From the IMG/VR virus record IMGVR_UViG_2703718793_000014: DNA of 37,137 bases. One strand, 5' to 3'. A program made the position numbers and the translations under genes. The DNA is from a virus (taxonomy: Duplodnaviria > Heunggongvirae > Uroviricota > Caudoviricetes). Shown piece by piece: positions 4,264 to 37,137 of this stretch. The notes under the pieces are model-generated. The model did no database searches. It had not been told where the DNA came from and saw only the letters and a list, made by a program, of their open reading frames with translations. Every line of letters starts with the position of its first letter. The first letter of the stretch is position 1.

Positions 4264-4442
4264 GTGCGTACTGTATTGCCACGTTTTTTTCGCGTCAGAA
4301 TTATGGCGGGGCGCACGGGGCCGACTTCGGTCGGGCCGGGTTCTTGTGTAGCCGGTACTGCGAACCTCGTACGTCTCGCCACCCACAGTTTCGCAGCTCT
4401 GGATGGTGAGTTTTCACAACTTACTACACAAGGGGCCACACC

Positions 4443-8980: not shown

Positions 8981-9292
8981 ATGACGACACCAACCAGACG
9001 GATAAGTTTCTATCTGAAGCCCGCCGCCGTCAAGAACGAAGGCGAAGCATGCGCATGGCTGGACAGCCTTACACCAGAAGCCCGCAAAAGCGGCCAACGC
9101 GTGGCTTTTCTGGCCGGGCTGGCACTTCTGAAAATGAATCCGGCAGAGGCTTACCGACTGGCTGCATGGGCTGACGATGAGACGTTATCAGTGACACAAA
9201 CCAGGACAGAACGCCCCGAGTCACAGCCAGTACCAACCGCACAGATAACCAGTCAGATGGCCGGAAATATCAGGGCGTTATTTCCTGAATAA
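8981..9292 (+). CDS. ParR-like centromere-binding adaptor
   Basis: 103 aa; RRISFYLKP...LDSL...RVAFLAGLALLKMNP...IRALFPE parallels R1 ParR (ribbon-helix-helix N-terminus); AAGGAG Shine-Dalgarno; immediately downstream of the ParM-like gene. Confidence 0.65.
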   Translation: MTTPTRRISFYLKPAAVKNEGEACAWLDSLTPEARKSGQRVAFLAGLALLKMNPAEAYRLAAWADDETLSVTQTRTERPESQPVPTAQITSQMAGNIRALFPE

Positions 9293-13168: not shown

Positions 13169-13322
13169 TGCTCCCCCTGAGTAATTACAGGAAGATTACC
13201 CGCGCGCGAAACTGTTCTCCTTAACCCCCTGTTCTGGCTGTTTTCTTACAACAAAAGCCCTTTGTATCAGCCTGTTACGCTTTGCCATCATGACTGAAGA
13301 ACCAGTCAGAGGGGCAAAAACT

Positions 13323-17996: not shown

Positions 17997-18147
17997 TACT
18001 CCCACATGGGGAAATCTCGGTATATGGGGCGACCGCCTTCTGGATGCACTGGAAACCTGTAACGCGGATAAACGGGCCATTGAATTACTGGAACAGCGCA
18101 GGCTGCAACGACTGAACAACGAGGATAACAACCATGCTGAAAACTGA
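17857..18147 (+). CDS. Rz1-like outer-membrane lipoprotein spanin (LysC-like)
   Basis: Begins embedded in the Rz-like gene in another frame; signal peptide with lipobox LLTGC; proline-rich. Start codon uncertain (17827 or 17857). Confidence 0.65.
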   Translation: MNAPTLCLTLVLLTGCAGTQNAPLPAPSVRLIPQTLTIPVTPPPFPDTPTWGNLGIWGDRLLDALETCNADKRAIELLEQRRLQRLNNEDNNHAEN

Positions 18148-18601
18148 TTCCCTGCGTGAAGCCATGACCCGTTCATGCCGATGGTGTCAGGCCAACCCGG
18201 AAAAATTCACCATTTTCGTGGAGAGCGGCAACATTGAAACGACCGGAGAAACGCCCTCGTTTGTTTACCGCTATCAGATGGTGATGTTTGTCATGGATTA
18301 CGCCGGGGAGCTGGACGACCTCACGCTGCCGCTACTGGCGTGGTTATCCGAAAATCAGCCACAGTTGTTGCTCAATCCGGAGCGTAATCAGGACATCAAA
18401 TTCTCCGCCGTTATCAATGACGATGACAGCGCCGATCTCCTGTTTACGCTCCCCCTGCGGGAACGCGTTCGCATCACGCGCAGCAGTCAGGGCACACCGC
18501 AGGCAGAACACCTGCCTGAGCCAAAACCCCGCCTGCCATCTTCCGAAGGCGACTGGTCGCATGTATTCCAGGATGTGACGTGGGGTGAAAGCGATGGATA
18601 A
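18134..18601 (+). CDS. R: Tail completion protein R (P2 gpR family)
   Basis: 155 aa; position and translation consistent with gpR. Confidence 0.8.
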   Translation: MLKTDSLREAMTRSCRWCQANPEKFTIFVESGNIETTGETPSFVYRYQMVMFVMDYAGELDDLTLPLLAWLSENQPQLLLNPERNQDIKFSAVINDDDSADLLFTLPLRERVRITRSSQGTPQAEHLPEPKPRLPSSEGDWSHVFQDVTWGESDG

Positions 18602-19229
18602 GGCATTCACCCGCGTGGATGAAACCTTTGAGGCCATCCGCGACAGCCTGAATCAGCAGGCCATCAATAACATCGCCAGAAAGCTGGCACAGGATTTACG
18701 CCGCGCCCAGCAGGCGCGTATCCGGTCACAGAAAGCGCCGGACGGGACCGCGTGGACACCACGCAGACGCCGCGTAACCCGGATACAGGAACGCATTCGC
18801 TTTATCTGGAATAACGAAGCACGCACGCTGAAAAACTGGCATCACGACACGGGGAAATACGGGCGAACCATTACCGGGTGGGATGAGGATAAAAACAATA
18901 TCCGCACGTTTTACCGGGATGACATCGACCGTTTTCTGGAAATACGCACCCGGCGCATCAACCAGGACAGCACAAAGCGCGTCCCCATGTTCGTAAAACT
19001 GCGCACCGCCCGCTACCTGAAAGCCCGTGCAGATGCTTCCGGTGTGACGGTGGGTTACAGCGGCGTGGCCGCACGTATTGCACGCGTTCATCAGTTCGGT
19101 GAGCGCGATCAGGTTGCGCCGGGCATTTTCACCGATTACCCGGTACGTGAGCTGCTGGGTATCAGCCAGGCAGATGAGCGCCTGATTTATAACACGGTGC
19201 TGGGCCGGATTGCGGAGGCTGTACGGTGA
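18594..19229 (+). CDS. S: Tail completion/virion morphogenesis protein S (P2 gpS family)
   Basis: Start at ATG 18594 overlapping the R stop (ATGGATAA); the track ORF starts at GTG 18585. Confidence 0.75.
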   Translation: MDKAFTRVDETFEAIRDSLNQQAINNIARKLAQDLRRAQQARIRSQKAPDGTAWTPRRRRVTRIQERIRFIWNNEARTLKNWHHDTGKYGRTITGWDEDKNNIRTFYRDDIDRFLEIRTRRINQDSTKRVPMFVKLRTARYLKARADASGVTVGYSGVAARIARVHQFGERDQVAPGIFTDYPVRELLGISQADERLIYNTVLGRIAEAVR

Positions 19230-21579: not shown

Positions 21580-23739
21580 ATGAGTACCACAACACGAAAA
21601 TTTAAAACCATTATCACTGATACTGGTGCCAAAAAATTAGCTCAGGCAGCCGCGCCAGATGGTAATCCTGTCCGCCTGACTCACATGGCCGTGGGCGACG
21701 GTGGCGGCACGTTGCCCACACCAGACAGTAAGCAGACCCGTCTGGTGCATGAGGTGTGGCGACATACTGTTAATCGCGTCATCCTGGACGCAACACATCA
21801 GAACCGCATTATTGCGGAGCTGGTTATTCCTCCTGAAACGGGCGGATTCTGGATCCGGGAAATTGGTGTATTTGATGAGCACGGCGATTTGATCGCGGTG
21901 GGCAATACTGCCGAAAGTTACAAACCAACCGTTGCCGAAGGATCCGGACGTGCACAAACATTTCGCACCATTCTGACCGTATCCAGCACTGCCACCGTGG
22001 CGCTTACCGTGGATAACACCATGGTTATGGCCACAGTGGATTACGTGAATGACAAACTGAAAGAACATGAACAGTCACGACGTCACCCGGACGCCTCGCT
22101 GACCGCAAAAGGCTTTGTTCAACTCAGTAGCGCCACCAACAGCACGTCTGAAGCACTGGCCGCAACGCCGAAAGCGGTCAAGGCAGCCTATGACCTTGCT
22201 ATCGGGAAATATACCGCACAGGACGCCACTACAGCGCGGAAAGGACTTGTCCAGCTCAGTAGCGCCACCAACAGCGATTCAGAAACGCTGGCGGCAACAC
22301 CAAAGGCGGTAAAGGCAACATATGACCTTGCTAACGGGAAATATACTGCGCAGGATGCCACCACAGCGCGGAAAGGCCTTGTCCAGCTCAGTAGCGCCAC
22401 CAACAGCACGTCTGAAGCACTGGCCGCAACACCGAAAGCGGTAAAGACAGCATATGACCTTGCTAACGGGAAATATACCGCTCAGGACGCTACGACAGCA
22501 CAAAAAGGGATTGTCCAGCTAAGCAGCGCGACTAACAGCACATCTGAAACGCTTGCCGCGACACCGAAAGCAGTGAAAGCAGCTAATGACAATGCGAATG
22601 GTCGGGTACCTTCTGCCCGTAAGGTGAATGGTAAGGCGCTTTCAGCGGATATTACACTGACGCCGAAAGATATTGGTACGCTTAACTCAACAACTATGTC
22701 ATTCAGCGGTGGTGCTGGTTGGTTCAAATTAGCAACGGTAACCATGCCGCAGGCGAGTTCTGTTGTTTCAATTACGTTGATTGGTGGCGCGGGATTTAAC
22801 GTGGAGTCACCTCAACAGGCAGGTATATCTGAACTTGTTCTTCGTGCGGGAAATGGAAATCCAAAAGGTCTTACTGGTGCGTTATGGCGACGGACATCGG
22901 TTGGATTTACTAATTTTGCATGGGTGAATACATCCGGTGATACCTATGATGTTTATGTTGAAATAGGTAATTACGCCACAGGTGTTAATATTCAATGGGA
23001 TTATACCAGTAACGCCAGCGTAACGATTCATACTTCACCAGCATATTCTGCTAATAAGCCGGAAGGATTAACGGACGGTTCTGTTTATTCGCTGTATATT
23101 TCGCCTCATGAACTTTATCCGGTTGGCGCACCGATCCCTTGGCCATCAGATACCGTTCCGTCTGGTTATGCCCTGATGCAGGGGCAGACTTTTGACAAAT
23201 CTGCATACCCGAAACTTGCAGCCGCTTATCCGTCAGGCGTGATCCCTGATATGCGTGGCTGGACGATTAAGGGCAAGCCCGCCAGTGGTCGTGCCGTATT
23301 GTCTCAGGAACAGGACGGCATTAAATCGCACACCCACAGCGCCAGCGTATCCAGTACGGATTTGGGTACGAAAACCACATCGTCGTTTGATTACGGGACG
23401 AAAACAACCTCACTATTTGACTATGGGACCAAAACTACCAGTAACGCCGGGAGTCACACGCATTCAATACCAACATCAGATGGTGCAAACCAGGGGGGGA
23501 AAATTCCACTGACATCTGGGCGTCTGGCAACTCAATATACATCAGCAACAACAGGTTCCTCTGGCTCACATTCTCATACTGTAGGTATTGGTTCTCATCA
23601 GCACACTGTCGGTATTGGTGCACACACGCACTCGGTTGCGATTGGCTCACATGGACACACCATCACCGTTAACGCTGCTGGTAACGCGGAAAACACCGTC
23701 AAAAACATCGCATTTAACTATATTGTGAGGCTTGCATGA
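21580..23739 (+). CDS. H: Tail fibre protein H
   Basis: 719 aa; conserved N-terminal baseplate-attachment region, internal tandem 44-aa repeats, and a C-terminal His-rich tip [34 protein letters not shown]. Confidence 0.9.
22108..22600 (+). repeat. Tandem 132-bp (44-codon) repeats inside H, about 3.7 copies
   Basis: Repeat units start at 22108, 22240, 22372 and 22504; each encodes KG(F/L/I)VQLSSATNS...LAATPKAVK...[17 protein letters not shown] with few substitutions. Confidence 0.85.
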
Positions 23740-24638
23740 TTACGCTCATTCTTTCTGCACCAGTAACAGAAATGGCTGAAGCATTTAAGCGGGTATTTGC
23801 AAACGCAGATAATGTGAATATTGTCGGAAAGCCATTTGAAACAATCAGAGAATTTGACTGTATGGTAAGTGCGGCAAATAGTTTCGGCCTGATGGATGGC
23901 GGTGTTGATGCCGCCATTACCGCATTCTTCGGTACTCAGTTACAGTCCCGCGTTCAGAATCATATTCTTCGTGAATATCTAGGCGAGCAGCCTGTAGGAT
24001 CTGCGTTTGTTATTGAAACGGGGCATAATCATCACCCCTGGCTGGTACATGCGCCAACAATGCGTGTTCCGTTGACAATTGACGGAACAGACGCTGTATA
24101 TAACGCAACCTGGGCCGCTCTGCTTGCCATCTTTCAGCACAATAAAAACGCAACGACAGACAGGAAAATAAAGACGGTGGTATTCCCTGCGATGGGGGCT
24201 GGATGTGGTCAGGTACCGTTTGAAAGTGTTGCCCGCCAGATGAAGCAGGCCTGGGATAACTTTAATAAAAAAACAGAATCAATTAACTGGGAATACGCAC
24301 AATCCCGCCAGTCGGCAGTATTTGGCACATATGCATACTGTCCGGGTAATTCTGTTTGCCGTTATGCGGATGCTAAATATATTGGATGCGGCGATTATCG
24401 GACGTATTGCTCACGTTCCGGGCAGGTCTGTATTAACCCTGAACATCAGGCTGATGATGTACTGATACAACATCAGGCTAATAACCGGTTTCGCCCTGAT
24501 TCGCATATACACCGGATTAATCCAGAAAATCCCGTAGGTAATGTCACCTCTGGCGCACATAGCCACAGAAGTAGCATCGTTATTGGTGCTCACACCCATA
24601 CGCTCAATAAACAATATTCTGTCTCTGATATTAAGTAG
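23736..24638 (+). CDS. Macro-domain protein with tail-fibre-tip-like His-rich C-terminus
   Basis: 300 aa; macro-domain blocks [46 protein letters not shown] and [20 protein letters not shown] align by eye to E. coli YmdB-type macro domains. The C-terminus [20 protein letters not shown] echoes the HxH tip of H. Start overlaps the H stop. Confidence 0.7.
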
Positions 24639-24646
24639 AGGTGAAC

Positions 24647-25225
24647 ATGGATTTCAGAATGAGTGAACAACCACGGACCATAAAAATTTATAATCTGCTG
24701 GCCGGAACTAATGAATTTATTGGTGAAGGTGACGCATACATTCCGCCTCATACAGGTCTGCCAGCAAACAGTACCGATATTGCACCGCCAGATATTCCGG
24801 CTGGCTTCGTGGCTGTTTTCAACAGTAATGAGGCATCGTGGCATCTCGTTGAAGATCATCGGGGTAAAACGGTTTATGACGTGGCTTCCGGCGACGCGTT
24901 ATTTATTTCTGAACTCGGTCCGTTACCGGAAAATGTTACCTGGTTGTCGCCGGATGGAGAGTGTCAGAAGTGGAACGGCACATCCTGGGCGAAAGATGCA
25001 GAAGCAGAAAAACTGTTTCGGGTACGGGAGGCAGAAGAAACAAAAAACAGCCTGATGCAGGTAGCCAGTGAGCATATTGCGCCACTTCAGGATGCCGTAG
25101 ATTTGGATATTGCGACGGAGGAAGAGGCATCGTTACTGGCTGCATGGAAGACATATCGGGTATTGTTGAATCGTGTTGATACAACAGTAGCAGCGGATGT
25201 TGAGTGGCCAGTCGCCCCACAATAA
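24647..25225 (+). CDS. G: Tail fibre assembly chaperone (P2 gpG / Tfa family)
   Basis: 192 aa from ATG 24647 (GAGGT upstream); position after the fibre genes; translation typical of Tfa proteins. Confidence 0.8.
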
Positions 25226-25230
25226 AAAGA

Positions 25231-25260
25231 AAAAGCCATCGACAGAAATATCGATGGCTT
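25231..25260. terminator. Bidirectional terminator hairpin between convergent genes
   Basis: AAAGCCATCGA-(loop)-TCGATGGCTTT with flanking A/T runs; lies between the G stop and the stop of the minus-strand acetyltransferase. Confidence 0.6.
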
Positions 25261-25268
25261 TATGTACT

Positions 25269-25841
25269 CTATTTATACAATACAACACCACTCTTTTTAG
25301 TTATATATGTGCAGTTTGATGGTATATCTTTATTTATAAAAGACATTGCACCTATTTTTACATTATCCCCAATTTTACGTGATAATCCAATGATGCAACA
25401 ATTAGCTCCGATATCAACGTTACTACCAATTTTTACTCTTGAACTAGGCATATCACCATCTATCTGTCCAATGGTAGTATTCTGTCGTAATACCAGATTT
25501 TCACCCGCATCAACAGCAAAATGAACAACAATTCCAGCATGATGGGGAATTGTCAACCCTTTTCCAATATTTGCGCCCAATCCTATTTCACAACCAAACT
25601 TGTTAATTATTTTACTGTTTAACTTTTTGGCTGCTTTCTTATGTAATTTATTACCATTAATATACATTTCGTTAGCCAACCGCCACCAGAAAAGGAAATT
25701 CCGGTTACGCTGCTTTTTCTCTCTTAAAAGCCTCCAGATATCCATACGTTTCCGCCGAATTACTTCATGTTTCCAGAAGTTTTTTAAATTAGTAGAGTTT
25801 CCAAATAAAACAAAGTGAATTGCCATTAAGTAAGATAGCAC
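25269..25841 (-). CDS. Hexapeptide-repeat (left-handed beta-helix) acetyltransferase, CysE/WcaB-like
   Basis: Visibly AT-rich ORF; translation has canonical hexapeptide repeats GLGANIGKGLTIPHHAGIVV...IGSNVDIGANCCIIG...IGDNVKIGAMSFIN. Start chosen at GTG 25841 (AAGGAG 6 nt upstream); the track ORF extends to ATG 25874. Confidence 0.7.
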   Translation of the reverse strand: MLSYLMAIHFVLFGNSTNLKNFWKHEVIRRKRMDIWRLLREKKQRNRNFLFWWRLANEMYINGNKLHKKAAKKLNSKIINKFGCEIGLGANIGKGLTIPHHAGIVVHFAVDAGENLVLRQNTTIGQIDGDMPSSRVKIGSNVDIGANCCIIGLSRKIGDNVKIGAMSFINKDIPSNCTYITKKSGVVLYK

Positions 25842-25997
25842 GATAATCTCCTTAATTATTATTTCAGACCACACATGTTATAAGGTTAAGAGATTATAAA
25901 ATCCTGTTATTTGTTATTCAAAAACAATTTTCTGAGAAGGACATACAACAGCAAGTCGCCAGTCACCTTCATCAGGAAATTGGCGACATACGTTAAA

Positions 25998-26492
25998 TCA
26001 GAGCAGCCCCTTAACTGAGCTGGCCGCGCTATTAAGGGATGATGTCACCTTATCTTTGAAGCCGGACAGCATATCGCTGAACGATGAGGATTGCAGGCGC
26101 TCCCGCAAATCCTCATCACAGCGTTCAAGAGTCAGTGAAAATTCTATCTTTTTCGCCTTACCGTAGCGATCAAACTCGGAGCGGGTCGTATTCGTTCCGG
26201 TCAGGACATACATGCCGTAAATCTGCCCGACGCCATCAATCAAAGGCCAAGGACGTCCTGTATATGCCTGCGTGGTCAACAACGACAGCGACACTTCGCC
26301 ACCAGTAATCTCAGGATAAAGAACACCAGAAAGAACGATGCGATCATCACCTGCACCGATATACTGCCAGCTTGCTGAACGGTTAACGCGTTCATTTTTC
26401 ACATGTCGCCAGCTTTTGTTTTGCTGTAACTGCTGATGCGGCAACGTGCGCAGCTCAAAAACAAACATGCCGTAGATCATCATCATGGCCAT
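25998..26492 (-). CDS. U: Tail protein U (P2 gpU family)
   Basis: 164 aa; last gene of the minus-strand sheath/tube/tape-measure block; gpU-like translation. Confidence 0.8.
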   Translation of the reverse strand: MAMMMIYGMFVFELRTLPHQQLQQNKSWRHVKNERVNRSASWQYIGAGDDRIVLSGVLYPEITGGEVSLSLLTTQAYTGRPWPLIDGVGQIYGMYVLTGTNTTRSEFDRYGKAKKIEFSLTLERCDEDLRERLQSSSFSDMLSGFKDKVTSSLNSAASSVKGLL

Positions 26493-26498
26493 GACTCC

Positions 26499-29342
26499 TC
26501 AATCTTTATCGTAAAAACTGCCACGCCTGGCACGGGCGCGCCGTTCCATTTCTGCCCTGACCATTTCGCCGACCAGTTTCGCCAGTTCGCGGGGATTCTG
26601 CGTAACAACGTTATGCAGATGAACATGAATTTCACCGCCAAATCCGGAGGCAACAGGCTCCCGGTTACGGGAAGTTGCAGGAACTGATGCCACTGGCGAT
26701 CGTATGGCCTCCACCACCGGGCGGGAGCTGGCCGCAACAACAGGGACCAGCGCCGGAGGCAGCGGAGCCGGGACCACGGGTGTGATATTAATTGCGGGGG
26801 CAGGCTTACTGACCTGCGCAATCTTCCGCTCCTGCCACTCCCCACGAACAGCAAGTGCGCGGGGCAGGTTCTTAAAGACAATATCGCCGGGGCCAATGCG
26901 TTTTTTTGTCTCATCAACCAGCTTACCTGTGTTATCAGCAATTTTGCTGAGTCTGCGTAGCGTGCCGGTATTGCTGTCTGTGAGAGGTTTGTTGTCTTTG
27001 GGTTTATCATCTCCGGTGCCATTGCTATTTCCCGCAGACTTCGGCGGATTGATTTTCGCAATGTCTCCCTGAAACAGAGCAACCTTGTCCTGAAGAATGG
27101 CCGCACGTTGTGCGTCTTCGATTTTCTTGCGCGCCCTTTCCGCTTCATCCGGAAGCACACCGAGTTTTTCAAGTATCCACGCCAGCGTATCCAGCAACAT
27201 TTTTGCAGGCGTCAGAACAAGCTGTAACGCACCACCAAGAACGTTACCGAATACCTCGCCAGCACTGGTACATTTATCCAGCGTTTCCTTGCTGGACTCC
27301 ATCGGTGACAGCAGCGATTTAAACCAGTTAAACACCTGGCTGATCCCGCTTCCGATTGCGTCAAAAACAGGGCCAAACCGTTCAAAGGTGTCGCGCAACG
27401 GGGTCAGCCTTTCCATAATCCCGCTGAACACCCCGGCAAAGAAAGCCCTGATAGGATCCCAGTATTTCCAGATAAGAACGGCAGCTCCGGCAAGCGCAGC
27501 CACGATAAGACCAACCGGACTGAACAACGCCCCGATAACGCCTCCCAGTAAAGAAACGGAACCCGTCACCATTCCCCATAGCGCAGGTAACACCCTGACG
27601 ACATTCATTGACCGGGTAAGAATGTCAAAACCAAGACGCAGGGTGGCCAGCTTCCCGTAAAGCACCCCAATAACCAGCGACAACGAGCCAATCGTTGCAG
27701 TCATTGCCAGCAACGCACCGCCTGCTATCAGTAGCTGGCGCGTCAGTACCGGATGGGCCTGCGCCAGCGAGGTGATTTTTTCAAGCACCCGCGTGAGCCA
27801 CTGCGTGACAGAACGCAGCGGACCGTCAACCAGATCACTGATGCGAATACGAAGACCTTCCCATGCGCTGTCGAGATTTTTCAGGTCCCCATCAAGATTA
27901 TCAGCCATTACTTTTGCGACGCGATCGGCCTCTCCCCTTGCCCCCTGCAATTCTCTGGTCAGTTTTTGCAGCTCTCCTGAACCAGCCGCCGCAACAAGCG
28001 TCTGCAAACCAACGAACGCCTCTTCTCCGGCGATGTCCTTGAAGAAGGAGACCTGGTCCACCTGTCCGTATTTTTGTGTCGCCTTATAGAGATCAAGCAG
28101 CACATCCTCCATCGGGCGCATTTTGCCTCTGGCGTCAGCAACTGACACCCCCAGCTCTTTCAGTGCATCAGCCGCAGCTTTTGGCGGTGATGCAAGGCGG
28201 GACAGACTTGCGCGCATGGCCGTGCCAGCATCGCTTCCGCGAAGACCATTATTGGCAAGCATCCCGGCCATGGCCGCCGCTTCTTCAAGACTGATACCAA
28301 GTTTTGCGGCAACCGGACCGGTATACTTCATGGTTTCGCCCAGCGCGCGTAAATCAGTATTGGTCCGGGTAAATGCTGCTGTCAGCGTATCGCCCACCCG
28401 GTCCATTTGATCGGCTGTCAGGTTGAACTGTGTGAGGATATTGGAGCCTATATCAGCCGTCTCGCCGAGTTCGACGCCACCTGCCAGCGCCATATTAAGA
28501 ACACCGGGCAATGCGGCCTGAATGGCCTGCGGAGTAAAACCAGCCATTGCCAGAAAGCTCTGCCCACTGGCGGCATCACTCGCAGTAAACTGTGTTTCAG
28601 AGCCAAGTTTTAACGCCTGCTCACGCAGCGCCTTAAACTGCGGGCTGTTTTTGTCGATTCGCGTCAGTGCCTGAACGCGGGACATCTCTTTGCCGAACCC
28701 GATCGCAGGCTGCAAAAAACGCCCGGCAGCATAGCCGCCCGCCGCTGCCGCACCAATTGCCAGCGCACCACCTGTTTTCAGTTTTCCCGCGGTTTCCTGC
28801 GCGCGCGAATACCGCTCACGCGCCTGCGTTACACGCGCAAGCGCCTGCCGTTCGCGTTCAAGCTGGTTGTTGTATTGTTCGGTGCGTCTGATGGCCTGCT
28901 GAATGGTGTTATCGCTGCCTGTCAGGGAAATGCCGTGGCGTTTCAGCTCTCCGCCAAGTTCCCGCATTTTCTGAATTTCCCGTGTGCGCGATTCATTCAG
29001 GCGTTCAAGCCGGGTGCTTAACTGCTGCATCAGCTTTTGTTGTTTTTCGCTGAGCACTGTACCCGTGCGTTGTAACTGATTAAGGGCGTTAAGCTGGCGT
29101 CGTGCTTTCACGATGCCAGCATCCGCTTTACTGACAGCGTCGCGGGCGCGCTCAAATGATCGCGCCTGACGCTCGAGATTTTTGATCGCCCCCTGCGTTC
29201 GCTGGATGGAGTCACCAAACTGCCCCATCAGGCGGCGTGCGTTTTCGGCAGGTCGGGTCAGCCTGTCAACGGCGCTGAAAGCGACCCGGATATCAAGAGT
29301 CTTCATTGTCTGCATTCCCGCTGCGAAGTGCCGCCCGCTCAC
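26499..29342 (-). CDS. T: Tail tape measure protein T
   Basis: 947 aa; long helical protein with hydrophobic central segments and Ala/Gly-rich repeats; start overlaps the end of the E' frame, as in P2. Confidence 0.9.
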   Translation of the reverse strand: MSGRHFAAGMQTMKTLDIRVAFSAVDRLTRPAENARRLMGQFGDSIQRTQGAIKNLERQARSFERARDAVSKADAGIVKARRQLNALNQLQRTGTVLSEKQQKLMQQLSTRLERLNESRTREIQKMRELGGELKRHGISLTGSDNTIQQAIRRTEQYNNQLERERQALARVTQARERYSRAQETAGKLKTGGALAIGAAAAGGYAAGRFLQPAIGFGKEMSRVQALTRIDKNSPQFKALREQALKLGSETQFTASDAASGQSFLAMAGFTPQAIQAALPGVLNMALAGGVELGETADIGSNILTQFNLTADQMDRVGDTLTAAFTRTNTDLRALGETMKYTGPVAAKLGISLEEAAAMAGMLANNGLRGSDAGTAMRASLSRLASPPKAAADALKELGVSVADARGKMRPMEDVLLDLYKATQKYGQVDQVSFFKDIAGEEAFVGLQTLVAAAGSGELQKLTRELQGARGEADRVAKVMADNLDGDLKNLDSAWEGLRIRISDLVDGPLRSVTQWLTRVLEKITSLAQAHPVLTRQLLIAGGALLAMTATIGSLSLVIGVLYGKLATLRLGFDILTRSMNVVRVLPALWGMVTGSVSLLGGVIGALFSPVGLIVAALAGAAVLIWKYWDPIRAFFAGVFSGIMERLTPLRDTFERFGPVFDAIGSGISQVFNWFKSLLSPMESSKETLDKCTSAGEVFGNVLGGALQLVLTPAKMLLDTLAWILEKLGVLPDEAERARKKIEDAQRAAILQDKVALFQGDIAKINPPKSAGNSNGTGDDKPKDNKPLTDSNTGTLRRLSKIADNTGKLVDETKKRIGPGDIVFKNLPRALAVRGEWQERKIAQVSKPAPAINITPVVPAPLPPALVPVVAASSRPVVEAIRSPVASVPATSRNREPVASGFGGEIHVHLHNVVTQNPRELAKLVGEMVRAEMERRARARRGSFYDKD

Positions 29343-29511
29343 GCCAGCTAACCACTTCGCCGGGCGTCATCATGAAGATTTCGGCGGGCGACCAGTTAAA
29401 AATAACGGCAATATCTGCCACAAAGTCTTCTATGTGCTCAAAGCACACAACCGTGATCAGGCTTCCGTCGCCTGTTCGTTCTTCCCGCCAGAGTCCGCAC
29501 CGCTCAAAAAA
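29293..29511 (-). CDS. E' extension reached by programmed -1 frameshift from E (E+E' tape-measure chaperone)
   Basis: Slippery heptamer T-TTT-TTG in the E frame (plus-strand 29505-29511); the -1 frame continues open to 29293 and overlaps the T start. This is the conserved G/GT-type frameshift arrangement. Confidence 0.75.
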   Translation of the reverse strand, partial: FFERCGLWREERTGDGSLITVVCFEHIEDFVADIAVIFNWSPAEIFMMTPGEVVSWRERAALRSGNADNEDS

Positions 29512-29822
29512 TTTACGGCAACCACACATAACTGAATAAAGTCACGGGATGCCATTTTTTTGATCGTCACTTCATCCAGTCGCGGTGATGTCACGCGTGA
29601 CAGCAGCGTAAACATGGATTCCGCTTTCAGATTCAGCACATCAGACAGCGACAAATCTCGCAGAGATCCAGCCTGCTCAATAGCCCCGGTGATCTCCACA
29701 TACGTGATTTTTTCGCCGCCTCGCTCAATTGGTTGGGTAAGTTTTACACCACGCTCACTGGTTTCTTTCACAGTGTCAGTAACTACCGTGTTTTCGGTAT
29801 CGATGTTTTTCGTCTCTTTCAT
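29457..29822 (-). CDS. E: Tail assembly chaperone E
   Basis: 121 aa; located between tail tube and tape measure genes; contains the frameshift site near its 3' end. Confidence 0.8.
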   Translation of the reverse strand: MKETKNIDTENTVVTDTVKETSERGVKLTQPIERGGEKITYVEITGAIEQAGSLRDLSLSDVLNLKAESMFTLLSRVTSPRLDEVTIKKMASRDFIQLCVVAVNFLSGADSGGKNEQATEA

Positions 29823-29876
29823 CAGGAAACTCCTTTCAGTCAGAGGCGACGCACTGCGCCGCCTGCATATTACTTA

Positions 29877-30389
29877 TCAGCCAAGCCCAAGCGCGGAACG
29901 GATGCGATCGGGCACAATGTCCTTGCCGTCCTTCCGGTAAATGAAGTTCAGCAGGTCAATCTCCCACAACGGGCGATCGTTAACACTCAGCTTGTAGTAG
30001 GTGTTTTTAATGGCGTAAGTGTGTGATGTGGCTTCGCCCTGTTTGGCTTCCCCCATATCAATTTCCGTCACACGTCCGCGCATTTCGACTTCATACAGGT
30101 CGCTTTCATCATCGGTGTAGTATTCCCCCGCAAAACGCAGTAGCGTGCCGTCAATCGTGCCGCCATACTTCAGGAACAGCTCACGAACTGCGCCCCCCAT
30201 GACAAAGCTCGCATCAAGCGCGGAGTCGTCCAGGCCGAGGTCAATACTTACCGCACCCATCATGCCACCACCCCGGTAGCTGTCGGTTTTGCGCGTCAGT
30301 TTAGGCAGGGTGACGGACGTCACCTTACCCACTTCGTTTTCACCATCCACAAACAGCGTAAAAAAGCGAAGATGTTTTGGTACAGCCAT
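29877..30389 (-). CDS. FII: Tail tube protein FII
   Basis: 170 aa; gpFII-like; overlaps the sheath gene stop by one base. Confidence 0.88.
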   Translation of the reverse strand: MAVPKHLRFFTLFVDGENEVGKVTSVTLPKLTRKTDSYRGGGMMGAVSIDLGLDDSALDASFVMGGAVRELFLKYGGTIDGTLLRFAGEYYTDDESDLYEVEMRGRVTEIDMGEAKQGEATSHTYAIKNTYYKLSVNDRPLWEIDLLNFIYRKDGKDIVPDRIRSALGLG

Positions 30390-31573
30390 CAGGCACCTCC
30401 CAGCACCGCAAATGCGGGACCAAAGAATTCATCAGTAAACGACTGGTAAAGCTCCATGTCTTCCAGCGGAGGAACGGGCGTATATTTGTAGCGAATACGC
30501 ACACGCCCCTGACGTAAATTCGTGGTGCTGTTATCCACGATGTCATACCAGCACTCCGCGCCAATCAGTTTCCCGGCAGTAACCAGTGAATCCAGTTTTG
30601 CCCTGATGGCACTGATAACATCCTTCACGTTCGCAGGTGTCAGTGGACTGTCGATGGTTTCAAACTGCGCTTCCGCAATTGAATCAGCCAGCACCTGTGC
30701 GGTTCGGGTATACACCTCAAAGATGTAGGCGTTCGTTTCCGGTGTGCGGTTGCCCCAGAAGCGGAACCCGTTGCGACGAATAATGGTCGTGATTTCTTTG
30801 TTGTTGAGGCTGTTGGCATCGCTGTCTTCGGCCTGCAACGACCAGAACACATGCCTCGACATCCCCAGCACATTTTTAACCGGAACGTTGGACAGTGATT
30901 TGTGCCATCCCTGCTCATGGTCAATGTACGCACGAAGGCCGCACGCATAGGCAGGCGCGGGGAACGTTTCGTTTTTGCCACTTTTCGGGTTGTAGGCGAT
31001 GAAGTCCGGCCATAAGAGCATCACCTCACGTTCGTTGAATTTCTGGCGGTAGGTAATCGCCTCAGCCATTGTGTTACAGCCGTGACATGAGGCATACACA
31101 AACGCGCGCAGTTTACCCGCAATCACGCACAGGGATTTTGTCACCGCCTCCGTGTCCAGCTCCGGCGCGGCCAGAATACGCGGACGGTATCCGATGCTTT
31201 CATCCTGCTCTGCAACAAGCAGCGCATACATCCCCGTATAGCTGCCGTCAGATTCAGAACCACCGATAACCAGTTGATCCTGCGTCTTACCGCCTTCTTC
31301 TTTGTGTTCAGCCACGCGAACGACGATCACTTTTGTGCTCACCTGGTCTGCGATAGCCTTAAGCGCACGATAAAGCGTCCCCGTAGTCCCGCATTTTCCC
31401 AGCACGTCATTGACGCGGGTCAGCAGTGTGGGCTTGTTCAGCGGGAACAGCTCCGCGTCCGCATCATCTGCCGTTGCCACGATACCGATAACACTGGAAT
31501 CAACATCATTAATCGCTGTTACCAGGTCGGTACTTTCCGTAACACGGGCACCATGAAAACGAGTTTCACTCAT
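30389..31573 (-). CDS. FI: Contractile tail sheath protein FI
   Basis: 394 aa; gpFI-like translation; first gene of the minus-strand tail block. Confidence 0.9.
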   Translation of the reverse strand: MSETRFHGARVTESTDLVTAINDVDSSVIGIVATADDADAELFPLNKPTLLTRVNDVLGKCGTTGTLYRALKAIADQVSTKVIVVRVAEHKEEGGKTQDQLVIGGSESDGSYTGMYALLVAEQDESIGYRPRILAAPELDTEAVTKSLCVIAGKLRAFVYASCHGCNTMAEAITYRQKFNEREVMLLWPDFIAYNPKSGKNETFPAPAYACGLRAYIDHEQGWHKSLSNVPVKNVLGMSRHVFWSLQAEDSDANSLNNKEITTIIRRNGFRFWGNRTPETNAYIFEVYTRTAQVLADSIAEAQFETIDSPLTPANVKDVISAIRAKLDSLVTAGKLIGAECWYDIVDNSTTNLRQGRVRIRYKYTPVPPLEDMELYQSFTDEFFGPAFAVLGGA

Positions 31574-31730
31574 AGCTTCAGCCCCTTGTATCCGTTAAAT
31601 GATTCGGCAACAATCATCACCCACCACGCGCGTAATCTCACCCCTGCGCCGTTCTCCCGCCACGGCGACAACAAAAAGCAGTAACCCCCTCCGCACGCAC
31701 ATGCGACCATGCCGCACAGGGAGGGAACAG

Positions 31731-32831
31731 ATGACCGACACCACCATGCAATTGCTCAGTCAGGGCACAGACCACGTGAAAGTGCCGGATTTTGATATTC
31801 TCGCGGAGGGTAAAACGCTGTCAGGCGTGGCAGAGCGCCTGATGAGCCTGTCACTGACCGACAACCGGGGATTTGAGGCGGACCAGCTCACCATCACGCT
31901 GGATGATGCGGATGGTCAGTTGCAGCTACCGCCACGGGGCGCGCGCCTGACGGTTCTCATTGGCTGGAAGGGAGAACCGCTGACAGAAAAAGGCACTTAC
32001 ATTGTTGATGAAATCGCTCACGAAGGACCGCCGGACAGGCTGACTGTTTCAGCCAGAAGCGCAGATTTTCGGGATGAATTTAACGTTAAACGTGAGGTGT
32101 CCTGGCATGATGTGACCGTTGAGCGTGTGGTATCCGCCATCGCTCATCGGTATGGTCTGAAACCACAAATCAGCGAAATGCTGATGGATATCGAAATCGA
32201 CCACGCCGACCAGACCGAAGAAAGCGACATGTCCTTCCTTACGCGCATGGCGGAAATGCTGGGCGCAATCACCACGGTAAAAAGCGGTAATCTGTTATTC
32301 ATCATGCCAGGTGGTGGCGTGAACGCACAGGGCCAGCCGTTGCCCTCGTTCGTCATTACACGCAGCAGCGGCGATCGCCATCAGTTCCGCATTGCTGACC
32401 GCGAGGCGTATACGGGTGTACGCGCCTACTGGCTTGATCTTAATTACGGGAAAAAGAAAAAAGTCAGCGTGAAACGCCGCAAACCGAAAAAGGAGAAAAG
32501 CAGCAGCCGTGAAGGTGACTATATGGAAGGTGCGGAAGGCAACGTGTTTGTGTTACGCAAGACTTATCAGAACGAACAGGCAGCAAGACGCGCAGCGGCG
32601 GCAAAGTGGCAGCAGCTACAACGCGGAGCCGCATCATTCTCCATCACGCTGGCACGTGGTCGTGCAGAACTCTACCCCGAAATGCATGGCACTGTAACAG
32701 GATTTAAAAGCGAGATTGATAATCAGGACTGGATTATTGCAAAAGCCGAGCACACCATTGATAACAGCGGCTTTACCACGCAGCTTGAACTTGAGGCAAA
32801 AATCCCGGAATGGATAGCGGAAACAGAGTGA
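31731..32831 (+). CDS. D: Tail/baseplate hub protein D (late control gene D family)
   Basis: Start at MTDTTMQLL (GGGAGGG upstream); the track ORF begins earlier at 31599; gpD-like translation. Confidence 0.85.
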   Translation: MTDTTMQLLSQGTDHVKVPDFDILAEGKTLSGVAERLMSLSLTDNRGFEADQLTITLDDADGQLQLPPRGARLTVLIGWKGEPLTEKGTYIVDEIAHEGPPDRLTVSARSADFRDEFNVKREVSWHDVTVERVVSAIAHRYGLKPQISEMLMDIEIDHADQTEESDMSFLTRMAEMLGAITTVKSGNLLFIMPGGGVNAQGQPLPSFVITRSSGDRHQFRIADREAYTGVRAYWLDLNYGKKKKVSVKRRKPKKEKSSSREGDYMEGAEGNVFVLRKTYQNEQAARRAAAAKWQQLQRGAASFSITLARGRAELYPEMHGTVTGFKSEIDNQDWIIAKAEHTIDNSGFTTQLELEAKIPEWIAETE

Positions 32832-32995
32832 GCAACTTAAATATATTAACTCGCTTATAGCACTTAACAGTCTGACATCTAGCCTTGTCACAAAAATTGT
32901 AAGCGCCATCATATTCTCTTGACTCAAGATAAGTGACTATGTGATCTTTTATGATGTTACCTCATTTGGGTTAATATATTAAAAGGAGTTGGAAA

Positions 32996-34066
32996 ATGTC
33001 TCTAGTTACCCGCAATGTATTCATTGATACTGAGTTTTTTGTAAAAGCAAACCTGGACTTCAACTCAAAAACTATAAAATCATTTGAAGAACTATGTAGA
33101 AATGATGAGTTCAGGCATATTTCTACAACAATTGTAGTTAAAGAAGTTGAGCGAAAAATCATCGAGCATATACAAGAAGCATTGAAAGGGATTAACAATT
33201 TCCGACGAAAGGCTGTTATCCTCAAAGAATATGAAGATGACAATATTAAAAATCTATTTTGTGAAATTAATGAAACAGACATTCGAGAAAAGGCATTAAG
33301 CGCATTTAATGGTTTCATGGAGGACTCAAACACAACTATTGTAGATATGTCGAAGGTGGACCTCAATGAAGTTATAGACATGTACTTTGATAAAAAAAGC
33401 CCCTTTAGTGCGAAAAAACCTAACGAATTTCGAGACGCCTTCACTCTTTTAGCAATACGTTCCGCGCTAGGAGATAATGAAAAAATTTATGTGGTTTCAG
33501 AAGACCCTGACCTAAAAGGTTACTGTGAAGACAATGATAATTTCATAATTATAGGAGCACTAAACTTACTACTAGATGATTACAACAAACACAATGACGA
33601 AAGAACTGGATTTATAGAACGTTTTTTAGAAAGCAAAAATGAAGAAATCATACAAAAATTAACGGAAGAATTAGAAACTGCTGAAGCTTATAATTCTTCA
33701 ACATGGGAAGACTCAGAGATTGATAGCTTTGAAATTACGAACATAAGCGAATTTGAACCCAAAATAATTCATTTGGATGACGAAAGTTGTCAAATTACTT
33801 TTGATGTTACTGTTAGTTTTAATGTCACTGCCAGCGGACCTGATACCGCAAACGGCTATTATGACAAAGAGGATGGAAAATTTTATACCTTTGACACCGT
33901 ATCTAATCACGAGGAGGAGGAAAAGGATTTTACAGTAGAACTAGAATTATTCTTTGAAATAGACGAAGGCCAGTTTATCAATGATGAGTTTAATTTGCAC
34001 ATAAATGGACTGGATGCTGGTATTGAATTTTGTGTCGATGAAAACTCATGGGAAGACTATAGATAG
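32996..34066 (+). CDS. PIN-like nuclease domain protein with acidic C-terminal domain of unknown function (cargo gene)
   Basis: 356 aa, markedly AT-rich, AAAGGAG Shine-Dalgarno. Ordered PIN hallmarks: VFIDTEFF (first Asp), VVKEVERK (Glu), IVDMSKVD, YVVSEDPDLKGY (Ser-x-Asp-x-Asp). No partner gene visible. Confidence 0.6.
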   Translation: MSLVTRNVFIDTEFFVKANLDFNSKTIKSFEELCRNDEFRHISTTIVVKEVERKIIEHIQEALKGINNFRRKAVILKEYEDDNIKNLFCEINETDIREKALSAFNGFMEDSNTTIVDMSKVDLNEVIDMYFDKKSPFSAKKPNEFRDAFTLLAIRSALGDNEKIYVVSEDPDLKGYCEDNDNFIIIGALNLLLDDYNKHNDERTGFIERFLESKNEEIIQKLTEELETAEAYNSSTWEDSEIDSFEITNISEFEPKIIHLDDESCQITFDVTVSFNVTASGPDTANGYYDKEDGKFYTFDTVSNHEEEEKDFTVELELFFEIDEGQFINDEFNLHINGLDAGIEFCVDENSWEDYR

Positions 34067-34150
34067 CTCCTCACTCAGGGAGGGCTGTCAGTTGGAATCT
34101 GAATTGGGACAACTTAGAATGGTAGCAGCACCACGTTAAGGGAGGTCGCT

Positions 34151-34411
34151 ATGTTCCGTTGTCCGCTTTGTGGCGCATCTGCCCGTATCCGCACCAGTCG
34201 TCCGGAAAATGATTCAAACACCGTGCGGCAAAAGTATTACCAGTGTAACAATCTGGAATGCGGCGTATGCTTCTCAACACTGGAAGCTTTCCATAAATTC
34301 ACATCAAAACACGCCTCCGGCGTTCACTCTTCAGAAGGTATCCCGTGGCATGAACTGCCAGCTTCACACAGGGGAAACAATCAGATGAGTTTGCCTTTAC
34401 CTCAGAATTAA
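34151..34411 (+). CDS. ogr: Ogr/Delta-type zinc-finger late transcription activator
   Basis: N-terminus MFRCPLCGASARIRTSR...YYQCNNLECGVCF has the Cys-x2-Cys...Cys-x4-Cys pattern and spacing of P2 Ogr. Confidence 0.85.
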   Translation: MFRCPLCGASARIRTSRPENDSNTVRQKYYQCNNLECGVCFSTLEAFHKFTSKHASGVHSSEGIPWHELPASHRGNNQMSLPLPQN

Positions 34412-34602
34412 CAGGCAGAATTGCCGGAGCAACAAAAAAGCGATAGATTACGCGCGGGTGCCTTTCGGCTGATGGTCGGAGGGAATACCCGAAGGCCAGA
34501 TGTGGAAAGGCCCCGGAAAACATTTCTGTTTAACCGAGGCCCTAACATATCTACCTTAAGCAAGTGATAGGTTAGCGCCTCTCCAACAAAGGAGCAAGCG
34601 CT

Positions 34603-34743
34603 ATGTCGCAAAAATCGCTTACGGCCATCACGTTCTGCGTGACCGTAATCCTCATCATCTGGATGCTGCACGGTTCGCTGTGTGAAATACGGATGAGCTT
34701 CTGGGGAGCGGAGTTTGCGGCGTTCTTACAGTGTAAGCAGTAA
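34603..34743 (+). CDS. Hok/Gef-family type I toxin (46 aa)
   Basis: AAAGGAG Shine-Dalgarno; translation MSQKSLTAITFCVTVILIIWMLHGSLCEIRMSFWGAEFAAFLQCKQ has the Hok architecture: N-terminal TM helix, SLCEIR motif, E(F/V)AAF(L/M) motif. Below the size cutoff of the ORF track. Confidence 0.65.
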   Translation: MSQKSLTAITFCVTVILIIWMLHGSLCEIRMSFWGAEFAAFLQCKQ

Positions 34744-34830
34744 GGAAACCGCGACGGGGGAGTAATCCCCCGTCAATCGGTTGCCAGGGTAAGGTCGATA
34801 AGGCACCCTATCTCACAGACATGAACAACA

Positions 34831-34866
34831 AGCCCGCAGCGTAAAAACTGCGGGTTTTCTTTTTGG
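34831..34866 (+). terminator. Rho-independent terminator
   Basis: AGCCCGCAG-CGTAAAAA-CTGCGGGTTTTCTTTTT: GC-rich hairpin followed by a T-tract, downstream of the hok-like gene. Confidence 0.75.
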
Positions 34867-34978
34867 TATCCCCATCCATAAGCAATAGGCATAACAGATC
34901 GATGCAATAAATCCGATCGATAAAAACGATCGATTTGTTATCATATCGGCAGCAGTAACCACACAAGAGGTGCCGCAA

Positions 34979-35176
34979 ATGACGCAAAATGTACGATGCA
35001 AAAATTGCAACAAACTACTTGCCCGCGCCTCATTTCACTACATTGAAATAAAATGTCCGCGCTGCAAAACACTTAACCAGATAACGAGAGCCATCGAGCC
35101 CCCCACACACATGAGGAGTTATGACCGTGGGGATCGCAATCCAGCACCAACCAGCACATACACCGGAACACACTAA
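34979..35176 (+). CDS. com: Mu Com-like zinc-finger translational regulator
   Basis: N-terminus MTQNVRCKNCNKLLARASFHYIEIKCPRCK is near-identical in pattern to Mu Com (RCKNCNKLL...HIEIRCPRCK); its 3' end overlaps the start of the downstream methyltransferase frame. Confidence 0.8.
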   Translation: MTQNVRCKNCNKLLARASFHYIEIKCPRCKTLNQITRAIEPPTHMRSYDRGDRNPAPTSTYTGTH

Positions 35177-35912
35177 GGTTTATCAGACTGACAATGCCAT
35201 GCTCTGTCGTGGGAATGCGCTGGAAATATTGCCGCTGATTGAGCCAGAAAGCATTGATGCCTTAATCACTGACCCGCCTTACAGTTCGGGGGCGACACAC
35301 AAGGCCGGACGCACCAACCAGGGCAGCCATGCAAAATATCTGAACGGCGAGAACCTTCACCGCTTTGATGGGTTCGCGGGTGAAAACATGGACGCCCGTT
35401 CGTGGGCTTACTGAACACAATTATGGATGGCACAGGCACACCGCGCAGTCAGGCCGGGCGGTTATGCCCTGGTATTTACTGACTGGCGACAACTACCAGC
35501 TTTAACCGATGCGTTTCAGGCCAGTGGCTTTACATGGCGCGGCATTATTGCGTGGAACAAAGGGAGGGGGTCACGAACACCACATACCGGGTATTTCCGG
35601 CATCAGTGCGAATACATCGTCTGGGGCAGCAAAGGCCATTTAGATAAATCGCCTTCGGGACCGTTCGACGGCTGCATGACGTTCCCGGTTATCCCGTCAA
35701 AGAAAATGCACCCGACCGGAAAACCAGAAGAACTAATGGCGGAACTGGTCAGGACTGTGAATAGTGGCGGAACAGTCCTTGATCCTTTTATGGGGTCAGG
35801 GACAACGGGTGTGGCTGCACTGAAAGCAGGACGCAAATTTATTGGTATAGAAACCAGTGATCATTATTTTGATGTAGCAACACAACGGCTCAAAACGGCG
35901 ATCGAACCATAA
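35121..35912 (+). pseudogene. Beta-class N6-adenine DNA methyltransferase interrupted by a single in-frame TGA (35412-35414)
   Basis: Motif IV ALITDPPYSSG in the upstream segment and motif I LDPFMGSGTTGVAA in the downstream segment are in the same reading frame, separated by one TGA; motif order IV then I indicates beta class. Start uncertain (35121 or internal ATG 35199). Confidence 0.6.
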
Positions 35913-36141: not shown

Positions 36142-37137
36142 ATGATACAACCTATTTCCGGCCCTCCTCCTGGGCAACCACCAGGTCAGGGAGATAACCT
36201 GCCGTCTGGCGCAGGCAATCAGCCTTTATCCAGTCAGCAACGTACTTCGCTGGAAAGCTTAATGACGAAAGTGACCTCACTGACGCAACAACAAAGAGCA
36301 GAACTGTGGGCGGGTATCAGGCACGATATTGGTCTGTCGGGAGATTCACCGCTGCTTTCGCATCACTTCCCTGCCGCTGAGCATAATCTGGCGCAACGTC
36401 TGTTGGCCGCGCAAAAAAGCCATTCTGCCCGCCAGCTTTTAGCGCAATTAGGGGAGTATTTACGTCTGGGGAATAATCGTCAGGCGGTCACGGATTATAT
36501 CCGTCATAACTTTGGTCAGACGCCGCTGAATCAGCTCTCACCGGAGCAATTAAAAACCATTCTCACCCTGTTGCAGGAAGGGAAGATGGTTATTCCGCAA
36601 CCACAGCAGCGCGAGGCGACCGACCGTCCTTTATTACCGGCGGAGCACAATGCGCTCAAACAGCTGGTGACCAAACTTGCGGCAGCAACGGGGGAACCCA
36701 GCAAACAGATCTGGCAATCGATGCTGGAACTTTCCGGGGTGAAAGATGGCGAGTTAATTCCAGCGAAACTGTTTAACCATCTGGTGACCTGGCTACAGGC
36801 GCGTCAGACGCTAAGCCAGCAAAATACGCCGACACTGGAATCACTACAGATGGCGCTAAAACAACCTTTAGATGCCAGTGAACTGGCGGCGTTATCGGCA
36901 TATATCCAGCAAAAATATGGCCTTTCTGCGCAATCATCGCTTTCTTCTGCCCAGGCCGAGGATATTCTTAACCAGCTTTATCAACGGCGGGTTAAAGGGA
37001 TTGAGCCGCGTGATATGCAACCGCTGCTTAATCCTTTTCCACCGATGATGGACACGTTGCAAAATATGGCAACGCGTCCCGCGCTGTGGATACTGTTAGT
37101 CGCGATTATCCTGATTCTGGTCTGGCTGGTTCGTTAA
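36142..37137 (+). CDS. Host (non-prophage) protein, Gln/Leu-rich with C-terminal transmembrane anchor; function not recognised
   Basis: 331 aa ORF beginning after the att repeat; Pro/Gly/Gln-rich N-terminus, two internally similar helical segments, and a hydrophobic C-terminal tail ALWILLVAIILILVWLV. Confidence 0.6.
   Translation: MIQPISGPPPGQPPGQGDNLPSGAGNQPLSSQQRTSLESLMTKVTSLTQQQRAELWAGIRHDIGLSGDSPLLSHHFPAAEHNLAQRLLAAQKSHSARQLLAQLGEYLRLGNNRQAVTDYIRHNFGQTPLNQLSPEQLKTILTLLQEGKMVIPQPQQREATDRPLLPAEHNALKQLVTKLAAATGEPSKQIWQSMLELSGVKDGELIPAKLFNHLVTWLQARQTLSQQNTPTLESLQMALKQPLDASELAALSAYIQQKYGLSAQSSLSSAQAEDILNQLYQRRVKGIEPRDMQPLLNPFPPMMDTLQNMATRPALWILLVAIILILVWLVR

Follow-up and report, generated by a model that had tools for sequence, protein, structure and literature searches.

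A P88-like P2-family prophage with an inverted FI–U tail block and a predicted Ogr site shared by the FI and D promoters

The window, that is, the whole stretch of viral DNA analysed here (37,137 nucleotides), carries a contractile tail module of the P2 type, in which each of the seven proteins (FI, FII, E, E′, T, U and D) is represented by a homologue recognized by PHROGs or Pfam. Together with the map of open reading frames, these assignments place U, T, E/E′, FII and FI on the minus strand at 25998–31573. The leftward block is headed by gpFI, the tail sheath (30389–31573; PHROG 23, 5e-126; Pfam Phage_sheath_1 and related families), followed by the tail tube gpFII (29877–30389; PHROG 55, 4.1e-60), which is called ‘tube’ in the GenBank records of SEN5 and P88; the PHROGs label for this protein is ‘head closure’. 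Next comes gpE (29457–29822; PHROG 103), predicted to be extended by a −1 frameshift into E′, which runs to 29293 and matches Pfam Phage_P2_GpE in its own frame, so that E/E′ together span 29293–29822; the slippery sequence T-TTT-TTG at 29505–29511 lies in the correct frame for such an event. The tape measure gpT (26499–29306; PHROG 28, 2.6e-219) probably starts at the ATG at 29306, as judged from the sequence and in agreement with the P88 annotation, the longest reading frame extending to a GTG at 29342. A gpU-like tail protein (25998–26492; PHROG 76, 5.9e-75; Pfam Phage_P2_GpU, 1.5e-38) is the final gene of the block. An Rfam search of 25998–31730 returned no RNA family.

On the plus strand lie D, a gene for a PIN_12-domain protein and ogr. 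The tail/baseplate hub protein gpD (31731–32831; PHROG 52, 5.1e-166; Pfam Phage_GPD) is 99% identical to D of P88 and is preceded by a GGAGGG ribosome-binding site at 31720–31725. An upstream ATG at 31599 was rejected as the start of D: it has no ribosome-binding site, relatives show no conservation of the longer N-terminus, and a start there would place coding sequence over the activator box described below. The PIN_12 protein (32996–34066; 356 amino acids; Pfam PF16289, 1.5e-20; GC content 0.34) is cargo between D and ogr, an interval that measures about 45 nt in most relatives. The late-gene activator ogr (34151–34411; PHROG 603) encodes a Cys4 zinc-finger protein that scores above the curated cutoff for Pfam Ogr_Delta (5.1e-14). 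A sigma70-like site at 34092–34120 precedes it, which parallels the situation at P2 ogr.

Between FI and D lies a divergent control region at 31574–31730. The first-pass annotation had read FI to U as leftward and D, the PIN-like gene and ogr as rightward, flanking a divergent region of about 157 bp; the open reading frame map, PHROGs and Pfam bear this out, and the length is exactly 157 bp. Its statement that FI, FII, E, T, U and D form one co-directional operon in P2 agrees with the P2 reference record. The window holds no such single co-directional F operon ending in D, since FI–U occupy the minus strand and D the plus strand. This contrast with P2 is a fact of gene order, to which a chance test does not apply.

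Beyond U, the window carries an acetyltransferase moron (25232–25874, minus strand; coding part 25269–25841), a low-GC gene of the hexapeptide type that lies downstream of U on the same strand, begins with GTG behind an AAGGAG site and has its own sigma70-like promoter at 25921–25893. The tail-fibre assembly gene, tfa, ends at 25225, and a strong bidirectional terminator hairpin at 25232–25261 follows the ends of both tfa and the acetyltransferase gene. The slot from tfa to the end of U is variable among relatives.

Judged by its nucleotide matches, the window is a P88-like (Xuanwuvirus-type) prophage of the P2 family. Across positions 1–25000, 78–83% of the DNA matches the P88 group at 95–97.5% identity, and across 23700–35000, 67% matches at 92–97%. 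This group comprises Escherichia phage P88 (Xuanwuvirus), PhiSM, Chuche, PhiR44_2, P884B11 and 500465-2 (Gemsvirus), and its members have the gene order of the window, with U-T-E′-E-FII-FI on the leftward side, D on the rightward side and the box of the window in the gap between them. The window thus shares the lineage trait of FI–U opposing D across a divergent gap of roughly 150 bp. In P88, nothing lies between D and ogr, unlike the window with its PIN_12 gene.

The deposited annotations of P88 and 500465-2 likewise show minus-strand U-T-E′-E-FII-FI facing plus-strand D, and the inverted layout is also annotated in the far more distant Salmonella phage SEN5 (62% identity to the window in D); phage Cartapus, with a D that is 52% identical, has the canonical order. 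To determine how far the layout extends, 166 loci were classed for orientation by tblastn with the window proteins: 80 GTDB species-representative loci around D homologues (the best 80 of 340 candidates), 80 from IMG/VR (the best 80 of at least 581) and further loci. FI and/or U opposed D in 141 loci of this best-scoring sample, with D identities of 60.8–99.2%, and the genes were co-directional in 24, with D identities of 47.6–53.4%. There were no exceptions on either side of this identity gap, and one contig was too short for scoring. In the GTDB part of the survey, 58 of 80 loci were inverted, spread over some 28 genera that include Escherichia, Salmonella, Klebsiella, Enterobacter, Kosakonia, Serratia, Symbiopectobacterium, Pectobacterium, Brenneria, Erwinia, Pantoea, Edwardsiella, Providencia, Morganella, Xenorhabdus, Photorhabdus, Yersinia and Hafnia. 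By record title, all inverted GTDB loci but one assembly belong to Enterobacterales. The sole other title is “Vagococcus sp. WN89Y”, whose D is 98% identical to that of the window; this locus probably reflects contamination or mislabelling.

The junction is also frequent within one host species. An 801-bp probe across the FI/D junction matched 1380 of 5426 complete E. coli genomes and was contiguous in 1358 of them, about a quarter of the total. The first-pass annotation had added that the orientation would be unremarkable if reference P2-like genomes commonly shared it; P88, 500465-2, SEN5 and the 1358 complete E. coli genomes do, and unremarkable it is. The inverted layout is standard for a large branch of P2-like phages from which sequences were already available. 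Since the P88-like lineage has members that are sequenced, annotated and classified by the ICTV, the architecture is already known from databases, although it has apparently been little discussed: in the library searched, no paper was found to remark on the inversion, its regulation or a box common to FI and D.

We then considered the sequence of the FI/D gap. A strict scan of the window for TGT-N12-ACA gave 9 sites against 8.7 expected, which is chance level, and none of them fell inside the gap. Comparison of the two divergent regions of the prophage, FI/D and P/O, with one half-site relaxed, brought out a TCT-N12-ACA site in the gap, the predicted shared Ogr activator box TCTcccgccacggcgACA at 31653–31670 (centre 31661.5). 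It forms part of an extended motif, GTTCT-N12-ACAACAAAA, at 31651–31676 (gap sequence GTTCTcccgccacggcgACAACAAAAAG). Its counterpart between P and O is the box TCTggctgttttcttACA at 13233–13250, within GTTCTggctgttttcttACAACAAAAG at 13231–13256. With its 14 specified bases, the extended motif occurs exactly at P/O and FI/D; a search of the 37 kb that tolerated two mismatches gave no further site. The window thus has only two Ogr boxes; its S and V genes overlap. The FI/D box is one base off the P2 Ogr/Delta consensus, as are the P2 pF and pP/pO boxes, which read TGT-N12-CCA. Two marks of an Ogr/Delta system are present in the window, which encodes a Cys4 zinc-finger activator and has a dyad of the TGT-N12-ACA type upstream of late genes. 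Promoters that depend on Ogr/Delta have this dyad centred near −55 from the transcription start, and they need Ogr and its contact with the alpha subunit of RNA polymerase.

The box is retained across relatives. Among 120 scorable relatives, 116 have a T(G/C)T-N12-ACA box 74.5–88.5 nt from the FI start (box centre to ATG), and in the other four, where the box has the same position, the left half is a variant (CCT or TTT); in most relatives the box is a perfect GTTGT-N12-ACAAC. In 39 relatives that were non-redundant at 85% identity, pairwise identity was 85% for the half-sites (5 + 5 bases), compared to 37% for the N12 spacer and 39.5% for the whole 200 nt. Half-sites kept while the spacer drifts are what a protein-binding dyad would be expected to leave. 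The first-pass annotation had suggested looking in 31574–31730 for Ogr-type dyads in both directions; a dyad is indeed there, but it is single rather than one for each direction, and each inverted locus likewise has one box per gap, not two.

To examine promoter geometry, the 39 sequences were anchored on the box and compared without gaps. On the FI side, the minus strand has a −10 hexamer of the GATnAT type 43.5–48.5 nt from the box centre, with A2 and T6 present in 36 of the 39. In the window this is GATGAT at 31613–31618, the −10 of a predicted FI promoter homologous to pF, with a predicted start near 31606 and a geometry like that at the pF start annotated in P2; the conserved GAACTCA that follows the hexamer in relatives resembles the CACTCAC around the annotated pF start of P2. 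The hexamer is near-palindromic (GATnATC) and can also be read as a plus-strand −10. On the D side, a TGnAAnCAT element occurs at the mirror offset, and TGn with A2 and T6 was found within ±1 nt in 30 of the 39 inverted loci, compared to a mean of 0.23 and a maximum of 2 at other offsets. In the window it takes the form of an extended −10, TGc GACCAT, at 31702–31710 (plus strand), with a predicted D start near 31717. The leader of the predicted D transcript would be only about 14 nt long and would bear the GGAGGG site.

The −10 elements are thus mirror-symmetric, at about 46 bp from the dyad centre in each direction, and the predicted starts each fall 55.5 bp from it. The first-pass annotation had reasoned that the gap must hold separate promoters for the tail block and for D; two are predicted, with a single shared dyad midway between them. 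A generic sigma70 consensus scan of the gap detected no promoter, a result that is expected for activator-dependent promoters and gives them no support. The P/O region of the window has the same geometry if O starts at the ATG at 13323, which has a GAGGGG site and gives an N-terminus (MANEKK...FRVAVSG) resembling that of P2 gpO. The ATG at 13290, which gives the longest reading frame, is at odds with the promoter geometry and was rejected as the start of O in favour of 13323.

Canonical loci anchored on their pF box offer a direct comparison. The FI-side −10 was present in 12 of 13, the extended −10 of the D-side type in 0 of 13, and the far side of the box often bears a terminator hairpin. 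The canonical distance from box to FI, 76.5–85.5 nt, is about the same as in inverted loci. Since the FI-side −10 and this distance match, and since the D-side element occurs in 30 of 39 inverted loci against none of 13 canonical ones, we conclude that pF travelled together with the block and that the predicted promoter on the D side is peculiar to the inverted clade.

In the reading that we consider likely, the window is a P88-like prophage that descends from one ancestral FI–U inversion and in which the FI and D promoters share one Ogr dyad. FI-FII-E/E′-T-U would be read leftward from the old pF promoter (start near 31606). Rightward transcription of D, extending to the cargo gene and ogr, would come from a promoter newly arisen across the same dyad (start near 31717). 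One Ogr bound at 31653–31670 would serve both promoters, as at P2 pP/pO. The D transcript may run on through the PIN_12 gene to ogr, as a search for terminators between these three genes found none. In most relatives ogr follows D by some 45 nt, so that ogr, as part of the rightward unit, would still be expressed late and under the control of Ogr. The late map appears to consist of four units in two divergent pairs, P-Q with O...G and U...FI with D...ogr, each pair having one Ogr box. Against the shared-dyad reading stand the TCT in place of TGT in one half-site of the window's box (CCT or TTT in some relatives), the short leader predicted for D and the second, plus-strand reading of the FI-side hexamer.

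Alternatively, D could be driven by an Ogr-independent promoter, either an ordinary sigma70 promoter with an extended −10 or an early or constitutive one, with the dyad serving FI only. A TGn extended −10 can work without an activator, and P2 ogr has its own sigma70 promoter, with a similar site before ogr in the window. Nevertheless, in 30 of 39 relatives the D-side −10 stays at a fixed, mirror-symmetric spacing relative to the dyad despite drift around it, and the D side of SEN5 is like its own pV late promoter. With ogr so close behind D in most relatives, constitutive transcription of D would also cause the late activator to be made in lysogens. We therefore regard this alternative as unlikely. 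It is very improbable that the gap lacks a promoter for D and that D depends instead on read-through from the plus-strand H–G operon, antisense over the U–FI block. The failure of the consensus scan to find a canonical sigma70 promoter in the gap would fit such read-through, which would nonetheless have to pass the strong bidirectional hairpin after tfa and continue antisense for 5.7 kb, against the traffic of the heavily transcribed sheath/tube operon; promoter-like elements are, moreover, conserved upstream of D.

The origin of the inverted layout was approached through phylogeny. Neighbour-joining trees of D and of FI both placed the inverted loci, 58 after dereplication, in one clade, with all 18 canonical loci outside; these were simple trees without support values, built from the best-scoring loci only. 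The distant outgroups Mannheimia phiMhaA1, Burkholderia vB_SBP7 and Vibrio MAR were canonical in all three cases. As the inverted loci are monophyletic in both trees and the distant outgroups canonical, the simplest reading is a single old FI–U inversion in the ancestor of the branch, where “single” is inferred from the neighbour-joining trees and the best-scoring loci. In the ancestor of this Enterobacterales-infecting branch of the Peduoviridae, the segment comprising the pF promoter and FI through U would have flipped once, while D and ogr would have kept their position. The first-pass annotation had offered either an inversion with rewired late transcription or a distinct lineage architecture as the explanation. 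The two hold jointly, according to the gene-order survey, the trees and the outgroups, with the rewiring indicated by the predicted promoters of the gap.

There is next to no chance that the block is a programmed invertible segment of the Gin/Cin/Hin kind, or a recent private rearrangement or assembly error: a DNA invertase does adjoin the U end in P88 and 500465-2, but the slot in the window has none, a search for an inverted-repeat pair linking 25875–25997 with 31574–31730 found no repeats flanking the block, orientation follows the protein phylogeny of the D and FI trees, and the 141 related loci and 1358 E. coli genomes are all in one orientation. With no end repeats and no relative in the other state, an invertible segment is refuted at the sensitivity of these data. 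The invertase neighbouring the block in P88-type phages is a candidate cause of the ancestral inversion; yet invertase-free members, such as SEN5, are also inverted.

As for the consequences of the single inversion, we lean towards the view that it made a second bidirectional late promoter. The dyadic pF box may have let a D promoter evolve at the mirror site, which would have given a self-activating D–ogr unit that no longer depends on the high-output operon for sheath and tube. Infective particles are made by both P88 and PhiSM, which are viable phages (PMC5285337, PMC6456863), and the arrangement is therefore functional.

These results are of use mainly for annotation: P2 cannot stand as the model for every P2-like prophage, and a lineage that is very common in Enterobacterales has another late-operon map. 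That map bears on the choice of start codon for D, where RefSeq records put a spurious ORF or an extended D across the control region, and is also relevant for the design of reporters or of engineered P88-type phages. The locus is, in addition, a tidy example of a symmetric activator site that would have been co-opted after a rearrangement. The shared-box model itself is a modest, testable addition that builds on the pP/pO precedent; it opens no long-standing question.

Compared to P2, the window differs chiefly in layout. The F operon of P2 runs pF-FI-FII-E-E′-T-U-D-ogr, entirely co-directional up to D as the last tail gene, while in the window FI–U are inverted and D is parted from U. Both have the seven tail genes, the T-TTT-TTG site in E/E′, ogr downstream of D, and a pF-type promoter with a dyad about 80 nt upstream of FI, although their proteins are only about 45–50% identical. 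Late expression of ogr in P2 is supplied by read-through of the F operon, and the P2 record gives one terminator for “ogr transcript and F operon”. The positional counterpart of the variable slot in the window is the Z/fun slot of P2, between G and pF. The slot at the U end, which in the window is taken up by the acetyltransferase, holds an invertase and an invertible cassette of tail-fibre genes in P88 and 500465-2, and in SEN5 it is almost empty.

The closest precedent for a shared box is P2 pP/pO, whose starts at 3016 and 3127 lie 55.5 bp to each side of the centre (3071.5) of a single annotated site at 3063–3080. The geometry is like that of FI/D in the window, although other genes are controlled and the window starts are predicted. 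In Smp131, one site reportedly serves both PP′ and PO′ (PMC3931495), and the same paper summarises the Ogr/Delta late-promoter paradigm of P2. Salmonella SEN4 and SEN5 (Senquatrovirus) and Klebsiella phages of the Reginaelenavirus type also have the inverted block with a TTGT-N12-ACAA box in the FI/D gap, while their D proteins are only 62–70% identical to that of the window. SEN5 differs from the window in having a third box, pV, in its S–V gap, and its D-side sequence closely resembles this pV late promoter, down to a GC-rich segment that separates the box from the −10.

In most relatives, D is separated from ogr by a gap of about 45 nt, whereas in the window the corresponding gap carries a plus-strand gene (32996-34066, GC about 34%) whose 356-aa product has a PIN_12 domain at its N-terminus (PF16289, E-value 1.5e-20). 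This protein had no match in PHROG, PADLOC or NCBIfam. In other E. coli relatives the gap extends over 1.3-3.5 kb with differing cargo, and in the relative 500465-2 it holds a hypothetical gene on the minus strand. Since the cargo varies in this way between the window and its relatives, the D-ogr gap of P88-like phages looks like a hotspot for cargo or defence genes. Downstream of ogr, and before the flk homologue (36142-37137), lie two adjoining plus-strand ORFs (35121-35414 and 35427-35912) that jointly resemble one DNA methyltransferase, the first of them bearing a DPPY motif; the pair has the appearance of a split or frameshifted methyltransferase gene.

Further cargo adjoins the tail-fibre genes. 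A plus-strand gene (23736-24638) flanked by those for the H tail fibre (21580-23739) and tail-fibre assembly (24641-25225) encodes a 300-aa protein with an N-terminal Macro domain (PF01661, ADP-ribose-binding/hydrolase, E-value 8e-19). Fused to this domain is a His-rich C-terminus similar to the end of the tail-fibre protein encoded just before it. The sole defence match of the 300-aa protein was a weak one to DarG in PADLOC (0.0044). An Rfam match to IS009 (24990-25188, plus strand, 191 bits) falls wholly within the tail-fibre assembly gene, and this family was probably built on conserved tail-fibre assembly coding sequence rather than on a separate RNA. Adjoining U on its downstream side and sharing its minus strand is a hexapeptide-repeat acetyltransferase region (25232-25921, GC 37%), whose EpsC/CysE/WcaB-like matches fall under the curated cutoffs. 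The gene has its own predicted TTGAAT-17-TATAAT promoter and a predicted terminator with a 13-bp stem, and the pairing of tail-fibre assembly and acetyltransferase genes also occurs beside side tail fibres in coliphages, both lambdoid and others. We consider the acetyltransferase a likely lysogenic-conversion moron.

Within the prophage's early region, gathering-level Rfam matches to isrK (4189-4263, 64 bits) and to the C4 antisense RNA (4299-4386, 79 bits) stand next to each other on the plus strand. These matches suggest a P1/P7-type antisense module for immunity or anti-repressor control in this P2-like phage.

Public annotations place either a 43-aa 'hypothetical protein' or an N-terminal extension of D over the FI|D control region (31599-31730 in the window). 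Such calls occur in the RefSeq records of P88 (9562-9693 in locus L001) and 500465-2 (9608 in locus L002), and RefSeq E. coli genomes likewise annotate a 'hypothetical protein' there. The annotated features overlap the conserved Ogr-type box and promoter elements, and they are probably spurious. For the scaffold gene O, on the plus strand, the longest ORF begins at 13290; however, a GAGGGG ribosome-binding site precedes the alternative ATG at 13323, which gives an N-terminus resembling that of P2 gpO. Only this second start is compatible with the predicted late transcript, whose 5' end would lie about 55 bp from the P/O box. A 226-kb contig titled Vagococcus sp. WN89Y (NZ_JBQPOM010000071.1), from an assembly bearing a Firmicute label, contains a P88-like prophage, and its D shares 98% identity with that of the window; the presence of this prophage is probably due to contamination or mislabelling of the assembly.

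In SEN5, the D-side box and downstream sequence (L004 7878-7967) bear a striking resemblance to pV, another promoter of this phage (L170 9258-9347), with 9 of 12 spacer bases and the GCGCGCGCG tract among the shared features. This is a hint that late promoters were duplicated or underwent gene conversion with each other. In the window, S and V (region 18134-19229) have no gap between them and there is no third Ogr box, so that the baseplate and fibre genes from V to G may have become part of the O operon. Unlike the window, SEN5 retains a 157-bp S-V gap (L170 9262-9418) with a box at 9263-9280, and the number of late promoters thus varies among P2-like relatives with the inverted FI-U block.
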